Source: Shigella phage POCJ13. Taken from it: DNA of 62,699 nucleotides. Made by a program: the position numbers. Positions 12,001 through 15,000 of this stretch are shown here, piece by piece. The stretch lies in the sequence record KJ603229. One strand, 5' to 3'. Numbering within the stretch: position 1 is the stretch's first letter; every line of letters begins with the position of its first letter.

Positions 12001-15000
12001 GTGATGGACCGTATGACCATGAACGGTGGTCGTTGGGTGAATTTTAACTGGGAGAGCTGGCGATCAAACGTTGGGCGTCAGGGTATGTGAGAATTTTTGA
12101 CGAGGTAAATTTTCGATGGAAACCGTATTGCATGCACTGAAAGCGATGGGTAAAGCCAATTCTGTTGAACTGGCGGCGCGGCTTGATATCAGCCGTGAAG
12201 AAGTTCTCAACGAACTGTGGGAACTCAAAAAAAATGGTGTTGTTGATAAAACGGGTCACACCTGGTTTCTGGCTGTCGAAGGTGAATCCGGGGTAACCGA
12301 AGGGCAGGCACTACAATCTGAAGCGCCGGATGTGGTAACCGAAGAGGTCGCTCCAAAAGTTAGCGCTGACATGATGATTGAGTTTATCGCTCAGGAGGGG
12401 GCTAAAACCTGTGAAGAAATAGCGGGTAAGTTCGGAGTTACCACTCGTAAGGTTGCTTCCACTTTGGCGGTAGTAACAGCAACGGGGCGCCTGGTGCGCG
12501 TGTCTATCAAGGGAAAATTCCGTTATAAAGTGCCTGACGTCGAAAACGGCGATTTGAGCGCGTCATCATCGCAGGATGAGAATATCACACACGAAGCAGA
12601 AAACAGCGCGTCAGGCGACGAACTGAATCGCTTTCCGTTGATGTCAGAGGGCACGGCAAAGGCCTGTACAGATGAGTTTATCCGGGATGTTCCGTCGTTC
12701 ACCGAAAAATATGCTGGTGCAGTGACCCTTCCACCTCTACGGGCCGCCAGTCGTGAACTTCGTCGCGCCAAAAAACAGGTCCAGAAGTGGGAGCGTGTCT
12801 GTGCTGCACTACGTGAGCTGAATAAACACCGGGAACTTGTCATGCAGATTACCGATTCATCCAGCAGTATTGCATCGGAAAAGTGATAACTGGAGAGCTT
12901 ATGGCAAAAGTATTTACACCCGAACAGCGGGAAGAACTGAAGGCACGTATTGTGGAGCTCGTGCGCCTGAATGGTCGGGGAACGTTCAGGCAACTGGCTA
13001 CTGAAACCGGAGTCAGCAAGACAGCTGTCAGACGTTTGTCCAGAGAACTGGTTGTCAGTGGCGCTATATTCGACTCAGGTTATGGTTTATTCCCGTCTGA
13101 TCAGGCGCGTAAGGACTGGCAAAATGCCCGCAAAAAACTCTCGAGAGCAAAGGCAAAGAAACCGGTTGTTATTGACCCTGGTCTTATCCGGGCATTACCT
13201 GATGGGGAAATCCGGCGCTACGACAGACGCTACAACATAATTTGTCGCGAGTGCCGTAACAGCGAAACGATGCAGCGTGTGCTGGCATTCTGGCGGGGGA
13301 GTGCAGAGGGATTGATGTTCTCCCCGTCGTGAATGACTGGGGCTTACGTGTTCAGAAAAGTGATTCATATAGAGGCTGAATCTGATCTTTTTTGTTCACG
13401 TCTGGCTGCCACCATTGCAGGCAGAGTGAAGGCGTAGACTAAAAACATTTCGGTAAAACTCAGGATCTGGCTTGCCTTAATTGGTGTGAAAACTTCATCT
13501 GTATGAACTGCTTTATTGGCATCAATTCGTACAATATGAGCCCATTCCTTCATCTGTTCAGTGATCAGCCCTTTTTTGTAAATCATCTGAATACGTTGCG
13601 ACAGCGATTCTTTTCCTGCTTCATCGCCGAGCAGTTTTTTCGTGGAGATATCGAGGACTCTGCGACAAAGAATTACCACTGTGTCGTACCGCCTCCTCTG
13701 TAAATCCTCTTTTGCCTCAACAAAAGTACGGTCTGCAACCGGGGGCGTATATTCTGGTGCGGTAATTTTTTTGACCGCAGGATAGATCTTGCGGAAACGG
13801 TACTGGCTATTTCCTGAAATCAGAATATCGAGGTCTTTTTTCTGGCTTTCCGCCATGGGGCCGTGATAGTGGTCTGATGGGATTTCAACAATAGCAACAC
13901 CTCCTCGATGACAACTTCTGCATACAAAAGCGACGTTAAAAAGAGGTGTTTTTTCAATTTGTTTTTCGGCAAATGCCTCAATAACAGCTCGCTCTTTTAA
14001 ACAGTGTGGGCATGTAATGTCAAAGGAGACTAAACTCATGGATATTCCTCTCGAAATTAAAGAAATTAACGAAATCATTGAGGTTACTGATCGCCCCGAG
14101 TTTACCCTCATGCGTCGTTATGAAACAGGAACCGACGAACAAAAATACATCATGGTTGCAGCATTGGCTGTGATGGCGATAGAAAGGGAGCGGAGGGAAA
14201 AGGACGTAATGGTTATTCCGGCGAGAAATGATTCACCGGATTTGAGATGGCAGGATCCGGAGTGGGATGTGGCAATCCGGTGATTGATATTTCTCTGGGG
14301 TAAAGCGCCGCCAGAATGACGGCGCGGTAGTGGAGAGTTAAACGAAGCGGATCTGGAGTTTTTTCCCTGTAGCACGGGCGAATTTTTTCAGTGTGGCAAA
14401 TGATGGGCCGCTTATACCTGATGCAAGATTGCTTTCCATTCTGGTGATCGCAGTCGCTTTTGTTCCCATACGTTCAGCAACTTCAGCCTGGGTTAAGCCT
14501 GCTTCTTTTCGTGCTGCCAGCATTTCATCAAGTAGTGCGAATTCGTCGGCGATGGCGTCGTATTCTGCTTTGAAAGCCGGATCCTCCATCCATTTGGCTG
14601 CCATTTCGTCGTGTGTCATGGTAGGTGTAATGCGTTTACCAGTCATGCTTAACCTCCTTCATTCTGGCTTCAGCTTTTTTGCGTTCGGCTGGCGGTGTTT
14701 TCTGCGTTTTCTTAATGAAACTATGCAGCATAATGATGCGTTTCCCTGTCAGAGTGCAGTAAAAAACACGTGCAATCCCATCGTTGCCTTTAATTCTGAG
14801 TTCGAAAAGCCCATCACCAAAGGCGCTGGTATGAGGTTCTCCGAGATTGCTGCCGTATACCTTCATACGTTCAATGAGATGTTTGTATCGGACACGCATA
14901 CTCAATGGAAGCTGATCGACTTCCAGCCGGACCTCTTCACTGTAGTATTCGATAGTGTAGTTCATAGGTATCAACATAACAAATTTGTTATATGTATTCA

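Follow-up and report, generated by a model that had tools for sequence, protein, structure and literature searches.

Toxins of the Gp49 family (Pfam PF05973), which is named after gp49 of phage N15, were classed in a 2025 survey as ribosome-dependent mRNases whose genes stand in toxin/antitoxin order (PMC11980606). Among the described systems, those to which the locus analysed here can best be compared are HigBA of S. pneumoniae (PDB 6AF3/6AF4; PMC7984235), gp49/gp48 of phage N15 and HigB1 of M. tuberculosis (Rv1955). The locus is a pair of genes on the minus strand of a 62,699-nt stretch of DNA from Shigella phage POCJ13 (KJ603229), referred to below as the window, to which all coordinates refer. 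A toxin gene (14636-14965, 109 aa), whose product belongs to the Gp49 family within the RelE/ParE superfamily, precedes an antitoxin gene (14338-14646, 102 aa plus stop) coding for an XRE/Cro-type helix-turn-helix (HTH) protein, and the two coding sequences overlap by 11 nt (ATGACTGGTAA). The pair is very probably a type II toxin-antitoxin (TA) cassette of the Gp49 (Tad/'HigB')-XRE class, carried by a phage of the lambdoid, Stx1-converting kind (Stx, Shiga toxin). An earlier note on this DNA had described a toxin-first, two-gene minus-strand operon with overlapping coding ends and a 102-aa XRE-HTH antitoxin, and both open reading frames (ORFs) were found as it had placed them.

HigBA of S. pneumoniae is the best solved relative of both proteins. 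It shares with the window pair the toxin-first order, the toxin topology, the order of the antitoxin helices with the HTH in α3-α4, and the presence of palindromes in the promoter region. However, identity is only about 20%, its four palindromes are of another sequence, and the model of the window antitoxin has no confident full-length structural match to HigA of 6AF3 (TM about 0.5). The pair gp49/gp48 of N15, from the Tad-Ata group (PF05973/COG4679), is likewise phage-borne and toxin-first with an XRE antitoxin; the window toxin is 45% identical to gp49 and the window antitoxin 38% identical to gp48. The title of Dziewit 2007, as cited in PMC2701414, presents gp49/gp48 as a TA stabilising system. 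The N15 genes differ from the window pair in that gp49 has a normal Shine-Dalgarno (SD) sequence (caGGAGGttatactATG) and no promoter-embedded TAACA-N4-TGTTA palindrome, and in that they abut with a 1-nt overlap. Moreover, N15 is a plasmid prophage, for which stabilisation is an obvious role, whereas the window phage integrates.

The M. tuberculosis toxin HigB1, which is part of a toxin-antitoxin-chaperone (TAC) system (7AWK, 7NBU; PMC9098466), shares the fold of the window toxin (TM 0.71-0.77), including the long helix α3 that in HigB1 contacts the P-site tRNA and uS13 (PMC9098466), and of its catalytic residues, R68 and K95 correspond to R57 and K85 of the window toxin and R77 probably to R66. 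By analogy, HigB1 probably offers the best mechanistic picture of how the window toxin would act on the ribosome. Identity between the two toxins is about 21%. Unlike the three-gene TAC system, the window pair has no SecB-like chaperone gene beside it: it is a two-gene operon with a hairpin after the antitoxin gene. Classical HigBA systems (Rts1 HigB, PF05015; E. coli K-12 HigB, PF09907) are also toxin-first and combine an XRE-HTH antitoxin with a RelE-superfamily mRNase that depends on the ribosome, but their toxins belong to other Pfam families, neither of which matches the window toxin at E≤0.01, and lack the long C-terminal helix (PMC9098466). The label 'HigB/HigA-like' given in the earlier note thus suits the gene order and the names of the S. 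pneumoniae and M. tuberculosis proteins, but not the classical HigB families. Another lambdoid-prophage TA locus from the same host group, paaR2-paaA2-parE2 of an E. coli O157:H7 cryptic prophage (PMC8630535), contains a gene shown experimentally to be leaderless, one of the few known in E. coli (PMC8630535); that system, however, has three genes and a ParE toxin, and it is paaR2, a separate regulator, that is leaderless there. The Acinetobacter plasmid p3ABAYE carries a homologue with 62% identity; we do not claim it to be the characterised A. baumannii HigBA, as it measures 330/288 bp against the published 357/303 bp.

The toxin ORF, which ends with its stop at 14636, contains three in-frame ATG codons, at 14965 (109 aa), 14977 (113 aa) and 15046 (136 aa). 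The pair is not a product of chance ORFs, because both proteins match Pfam profiles, have 4810 (toxin) and 667 (antitoxin) homologues, and occur as the same pair in 79 of 80 related loci. A 951-nt query covering 14200-15150 matched Shigella phage 75/02 Stx (KF766125/NC_029120) with 100% identity; adding 12 to a window coordinate gives the coordinate in that record. At the right end of the window, however, identity to the phage drops to 97%, which makes the window a very close relative of 75/02 Stx but not that exact record. RefSeq names the two genes 'type II toxin-antitoxin system RelE/ParE family toxin' and 'transcriptional regulator', names that are absent from the original GenBank record, and none of the papers found in a literature search mentions a TA system of phage 75/02 or of Stx phages. 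A scan of 13000-17000 with Rfam found no RNA family in the TA region.

On the phage map, the pair is flanked by replication and ren-like genes on one side and by ant/ninB/Q/stx1 on the other, and the early rightward operon is on the other strand. The earlier note had placed it inside the prophage early region, which holds for its position between the replication/ren and nin genes but not for its transcription: the pair is a moron in the early region, with its own candidate promoter and outside the early transcript. Because it faces against the early rightward operon and has a promoter of its own, the cassette is expected to be expressed in the lysogen.

The toxin matched the Gp49 profile PF05973 with an E-value of 1.8e-25 (89.3 bits, cut-off 23.9), residues 16-103 aligning with positions 3-90 of 90. 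This places it in the RelE/ParE superfamily and not in an unrelated family, in agreement with the toxin assignment of the earlier note. The same domain was carried by all 120 toxin homologues among the matches listed, and in PHROGs the toxin aligned end to end with phrog_2523 (1-109 on 1-108 of 108). No match to the ParE family PF05016 was obtained at E≤0.01. NCBIfam returned sub-threshold matches only (TIGR02683, with 21 bits where the cut-off is 62.85, and HTH fragments of RstR, HipB and MqsA), and for this reason no equivalog name can be assigned. PADLOC-DB 2.0 contained no full-length defence component matching either protein: the toxin aligned with no more of the 293-position NsnC model than its 51 C-terminal positions, and the antitoxin gave only weak generic HTH matches (capH, RmrA).

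Among PDB sequences, the best match of the toxin was S. pneumoniae HigB (6af3_A, E 8.7e-6). An AlphaFold (AF2) model built with a 32-homologue alignment reached a pLDDT of 92 and comprises β1 (residues 4-7), α1 (10-17), α2 (21-37), β2-β5 and a long C-terminal α3 (92-108). Searched with Foldseek, this model retrieved first S. pneumoniae HigB (6af4, E 1.5e-6, TM 0.74-0.77), followed by M. tuberculosis HigB1 (7awk, TM 0.77, and the ribosome-bound 7nbu) and then by YafQ, RelE and YoeB; the P. vulgaris HigB structures matched weakly (E 0.2-0.3). As modelled, the toxin has a RelE-type (BECR) fold with the long C-terminal helix that is a trait of Gp49-like toxins (PMC9098466). In S. pneumoniae HigB, residues R68, R73, F90 and K92 are required for RNase activity (PMC7984235), and they have been equated structurally with R68/R77/K95 of M. 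tuberculosis HigB1 and K54/R61/R81 of RelE (PMC9098466). In a HMMER alignment (PDB chain numbering = native + 20), R57, F83 and K85 of the window toxin correspond directly to R68, F90 and K92, while pairing R66 with R73, which is probably conserved as well, requires moving a 2-residue gap. The 32-sequence homologue alignment shows no variation at any of these four window residues. By analogy with these relatives, the toxin is predicted to be a ribosome-dependent mRNA endonuclease. Since M. tuberculosis HigB2 and HigB3 belong to the same family and are not toxic, membership of PF05973 alone does not prove toxicity; we nonetheless consider it probable that the window allele is toxic and neutralised by its antitoxin.

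The antitoxin matched HTH_3 (E 3.4e-11, 43.4 bits), and its best PDB sequence match was S. pneumoniae HigA (6af3_B, E 1.1e-3). Its AF2 model (pLDDT 87.6) is that of an XRE protein with five helices, in which residues 12-49 form α1-α2, the HTH spans approximately residues 53-76 and the protein ends in KKLQIRFV. The helices α1-α2 are presumed to bind the toxin and KKLQIRFV to serve as a dimerisation strand; in 6AF4, both proteins contribute their helices α1 and α2 to the interface. We compared the window alleles with those of E. coli SCU-104 (SCU104), which are 84% identical. The toxins differ at 33 residues, 23 of them within the first 50 and 10 within the last 59, with a cluster at 10-47. The antitoxins differ at 10 residues, of which 7 fall at residues 16-25, that is, at the end of α1 and the start of α2, 2 at residues 6-7 and 1 in residues 26-102. 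For these two alleles, the co-localised variation would fit a cognate interface whose two sides diversify together, although it is only suggestive.

Beyond the phage, an antitoxin homologue lies downstream of the toxin gene in all but one of the 80 further genome loci, at 43-90% identity. When only ATG starts were considered, the coding sequences of 76 loci overlapped by 14 nt in 46 cases, by 4 nt in 7, by 17 nt in 7, by 11 nt in 5 and by 8 nt in 2, the few negative values stemming from the restriction to ATG. Methylospira, Glaciimonas and Arsenophonus each have a 109-aa Gp49 gene whose end overlaps by 11 nt with a downstream HTH_3 gene of 100-104 aa, and phage or integrase genes lie nearby. 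Relatives were also present in 3679 plasmid records.

The control region is conserved across taxa as well. A perfect 16-bp palindrome, ATAACAAATTTGTTAT (14976-14991), precedes the toxin gene, and its core TAACANNNNTGTTA is present a single time in the 62.7 kb, where 0.03 copies would be expected. The palindrome is conserved in five enterobacterial alleles, and of 83 distinct regions upstream of homologues from many taxa, 73 contain a core TAAC-N6-GTTA whose distance from the start codon is fixed. The palindrome is presumed to be the operator of an antitoxin dimer. It escaped our repeat scan, its arms being contiguous. It sits in the spacer of a candidate sigma-70 promoter (14973-15001, minus strand) and overlaps the -10 hexamer: TTGAAT (15001-14996) is followed by a 17-nt spacer, TATGTT (14978-14973), GATACCT and the ATG at 14965. 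In a position matrix of 76 distinct homologous upstream regions anchored on the palindrome, the T, T and G of the -35 element were conserved in 82, 83 and 75% of the regions, the next eight positions were unconserved, the palindrome core TAACA-N4-TGTTA was nearly invariant, and a -10 element T-A-t-t-A-T, conserved at 100/100/68/61/66/99%, stood at a spacing of 17 nt. Conservation of 75-99% extends beyond the palindrome, to the TTG and to the last T of the -10. Under a strict pattern, the complete promoter geometry was present in 47 of the 83 distinct regions, with a gap between the -10 and the start codon of 6 nt in 39 of them, 7 nt in 6 and 5 nt in 2; 20 of these regions have ATG as start codon and 27 have GTG. 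A generic promoter and terminator scan (at least 9 of 12 consensus positions; loop of at most 8 nt; at least 5 T) reported nothing at the toxin 5' end or past the antitoxin gene, and the elements described here emerged only from comparison and folding.

The translation signals of the two genes are of different kinds. No SD-like 4-mer occurs at -16 to -4 in any of the 83 regions upstream of toxin genes, and in the window no SD sequence is seen before the ATG at 14965 or that at 14977. A start codon 7-8 nt past the -10 hexamer coincides with the usual site of transcription start. Because the -10 element ends 7 nt before the ATG at 14965, where transcription normally begins, we lean, with no great assurance, towards a leaderless toxin mRNA. 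The antitoxin gene, in contrast to its partner, has a SD sequence, AAGGAGG (14653-14659), 6 nt before its ATG and within the conserved toxin codons M-K-E-V. This element is invariant in five E. coli and phage alleles, and GAAGGAG or a close variant occupies the same position in nearly all of the 76 related loci. We consider it slightly more likely than not that a large, phylum-spanning Gp49-XRE subfamily, with members in Beta- and Gammaproteobacteria, in metagenome-assembled genomes of Nitrospira and Thermoanaerobaculia, and in the Stx phage of the window, has one fixed control architecture, consisting of an operator in the promoter spacer and -10, a leaderless toxin gene and an antitoxin SD within the toxin K-E codons. 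The leaderless architecture is in that case a trait of the subfamily and not of every Gp49 module.

Several observations weigh against an intact cassette with a leaderless 109-aa toxin. The promoter of the window agrees with the consensus at 8 of 12 positions, below the threshold of the generic scan, and the first T and A of the '-10' could be conserved by the palindrome alone. Leaderless GTG mRNA is poorly translated by E. coli, and more than half of the distant homologues with the strict geometry (27 of 47) start with GTG. Neither N15 gp49 nor the Acinetobacter plasmid homologue has the leaderless geometry, about 30 nt separating the promoter-like element from the ATG in p3ABAYE. The allele shared by SCU104 and phage PhiR5_2 has ATA at the equivalent of 14965-14963 while it retains the upstream ATG, so that its toxin is either translated as 113 aa or no longer translated. 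As for function, the model of the antitoxin retrieved in Foldseek only generic XRE proteins (HipB, HicB, C-proteins, HigA of 6af3 and M. tuberculosis HigA2), all at E≥0.019, and two Gp49-family toxins of M. tuberculosis, HigB2 and HigB3, are not toxic on expression (PMC9098466).

Existing annotations disagree on where the toxin starts: PGAP gives 109 aa in some E. coli genomes and 113 aa in others, NC_029120 of RefSeq has 87 aa and the PhiR5_2 record 76 aa. The earlier note had left the choice between 14965 and 14977 open. If translation began at 14977, the 113-aa toxin would be made from a conventional leadered transcript that begins before the cassette or within the first 50 nt of it, and the palindrome would be an operator only and not part of a -10. 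This arrangement would agree with the weak consensus of the window promoter, with the choice made by PGAP in two genomes and with the fact that the ATG is invariant in the five enterobacterial alleles and is the sole in-frame ATG near the N-terminus in SCU104/PhiR5_2. Yet the invariance of ATG 14977 needs no coding explanation, because the codon lies inside the 16-bp palindrome, and the four codons that it would add vary freely (MLIP, MFTF, MFHS, MFND, MFTL) whereas the next eight residues, MNYTIEYY, are nearly invariant. Homologues from distant taxa lack these codons and begin with M-x-Y-T-I-x-Y-Y at the 14965 position, as do most of the 4810 toxin homologues, which measure 109-110 aa. The conservation of the TTG and of the final -10 T outside the palindrome also argues against an operator-only element, and the missing SD before either ATG lends 14977 no advantage. 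We consider a start at 14977 unlikely, though still deserving attention, and favour 14965 because of the homologue N-termini, the variable extra codons, the palindrome over 14977 and the conserved promoter-like element.

A different doubt concerns activity: the locus might be a decayed or domesticated TA system, with a Gp49 protein that has lost its toxicity and an HTH protein that serves the phage as an ordinary transcription factor or acts as an anti-addiction antitoxin. The non-toxic HigB2 and HigB3 of M. tuberculosis provide a precedent within the same Pfam family, the sister allele SCU104/PhiR5_2 has ATA in place of the family-typical start codon, and at the same hot spot all that many Stx2a phages retain of the antitoxin gene is a 71-nt remnant, so that the cassette does decay. 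The window allele, however, retains its start codon, full ORF, candidate catalytic residues, putative operator and SD, all matching the family consensus, and its toxin is 100% identical to that of phage 75/02 and 95% identical to a cluster found on many E. coli contigs, which together make decay improbable here. It is less probable still that the toxin poisons gyrase in the manner of ParE or acts in some other way than as an RNase. The RelE/ParE superfamily does hold both activities, automated annotation goes no further than 'RelE/ParE family toxin', and ParE2 and PrpT appear among the weaker Foldseek matches. But the top structural matches are HigB proteins demonstrated to be RNases, including one whose structure was determined on the ribosome, whereas ParE proteins match only with TM 0.44-0.50 and E≥0.025, below RelE, YafQ and YoeB, and PF05016 is not matched. 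The basic and aromatic residues needed for the RNase activity of S. pneumoniae HigB are conserved, and PF05973 is listed under ribosome-dependent mRNA degradation (PMC11980606).

Other start sites proposed or available for the toxin were set aside. The ATG at 15046 (136 aa) lies outside the conserved cassette, and the RefSeq start at M23 (87 aa; 14636-14899, minus strand, NC_029120 gp22) would remove β1, α1 and the first two α2 residues of the Gp49 domain. RefSeq also annotates gp23, a 63-aa antisense ORF (14879-15070, plus strand) over the toxin 5' end and promoter, which is probably spurious; the gp22 start and gp23 look mis-annotated. In the SCU104/PhiR5_2 allele, annotated with 113 or 76 aa, the promoter, palindrome and antitoxin SD are intact; if its mRNA is leaderless, toxin translation has possibly been lost and the antitoxin alone kept.

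Taking the pair as a functional cassette with a leaderless toxin gene, we propose the following course of events. Transcription would start at or beside the A of the ATG at 14965, and the leaderless toxin would be translated inefficiently, while the antitoxin would be translated strongly from the internal AAGGAGG, giving an excess of antitoxin despite the toxin-first order. The antitoxin would sequester the toxin through helices α1-α2, and an antitoxin dimer would bind the palindrome at 14976-14991 over the -10 and repress the operon. When synthesis stops, through loss of the prophage or through the transcription shut-off imposed by another phage, the presumably labile antitoxin would decay and the toxin would arrest translation, entering the ribosomal A site and cleaving mRNA as do M. 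tuberculosis HigB1 and other Gp49-family toxins. How TA operons of reverse gene order set the ratio of toxin to antitoxin has been stated to be an open question by Armalyte et al., who did not find an internal antitoxin promoter in A. baumannii higBA2 (PMC5906591). By analogy with N15 and the plasmid homologues, we take the most likely role of the pair to be prophage stabilisation or selfish addiction. Exclusion of other phages is a possible by-product; a Gp49-family HigB of a TAC module has been reported in abortive infection (PMC11980606).

The limits of the cassette can be traced by comparison with other prophages. DNA related to the pair was found in 97 of 5426 complete E. coli genomes, always on the chromosome. 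In E. coli RMDEC465 the pair lies between ninE and an antirepressor gene, without its window neighbours, and the nucleotide match to the window spans 14305-15032. A five-locus alignment shows conservation starting abruptly at a block, GATATGTGTTGTCGTCAAC (15014-15032, minus strand), which forms the upstream edge; BLAST coverage in other prophages stops at 15032, and further upstream the sequence differs with the prophage context. Downstream, about 13 nt past the antitoxin stop, a GC-rich hairpin with a 9-bp stem followed by UUU (14305-14325, minus strand) folds at -19.1 kcal/mol (z -4.3; 0 of 200 shuffles fold as well). It is likely a weak intrinsic terminator, left unlisted by the simple terminator scan because its U-run is short, and it also marks the downstream end of the cassette. 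These alignments indicate that the pair is a mobile cassette of about 0.73 kb (approximately 14305-15032) among lambdoid prophages.

Exactly at the upstream junction of the cassette, in the context shared by the window and E. coli KY176, lies a 17-nt inverted repeat (15030-15046/15055-15071, 82% complementary, 8-nt spacer), possibly a recombination scar or a terminator. In at least 36 Stx2a-converting phages, the match to the antitoxin gene is confined to its final ~69 nt (window 14336-14406, about 96% identity). In one of them, LC727840, the remnant (1201-1271) lies beside an ORF for a classical HigA-family HTH protein (879-1184, minus strand), and in KY176 that orphan HigA gene (L005 4134-4439) is inserted just downstream of the antitoxin gene of an intact pair. 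The ren/nin site appears to be a hot spot for the gain, replacement and decay of TA cassettes.

Other genes surround the pair. Downstream and on the same strand lies a gene (13365-14111, minus strand) for a DUF4145 protein (Pfam E 1.2e-8; phrog_1305) with a weak PADLOC match to the single-gene defence candidate PD-T7-4 (E 1.7e-3). Because it is absent from RMDEC465, it stands outside the TA cassette; it could be another defence-type moron. On the other side, an island with a GC content of 0.27-0.37, against about 0.5 around it, comprises ORFs at 15143-15619 (plus strand), 15607-16302 (plus strand) and 16322-16711 (minus strand). Two ORFs of the island have no assigned function (phrog_19308 and phrog_21161, without a Pfam match), and one codes for a membrane protein (phrog_12855), annotated as DUF805 by PGAP in related E. 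coli prophages. The AT-rich island looks like recently acquired moron cargo.

The locus is an uncharacterised member of a well-known kind and is already annotated as a TA system; the conserved leaderless-toxin architecture may be its sole new feature. For the annotation of the reference Stx phage, the favoured start corrects the toxin to 109 aa from 14965 in place of 87 aa. The cassette can be viewed as a mobile element that is gained and lost at the ren/nin hot spot of lambdoid prophages, those of Stx phages included, and it may bear on the retention of the prophage or the exclusion of competing phages in Shiga-toxin-producing strains. A leaderless toxin gene combined with an SD-led antitoxin gene provides a testable hypothesis for the toxin-to-antitoxin ratio in reverse-order TA operons. 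If true, the architecture would be a general translational answer to the need for antitoxin excess in toxin-first TA operons, and it would add a rare leaderless gene, coding for a toxin, to the repertoire of E. coli and Shigella.

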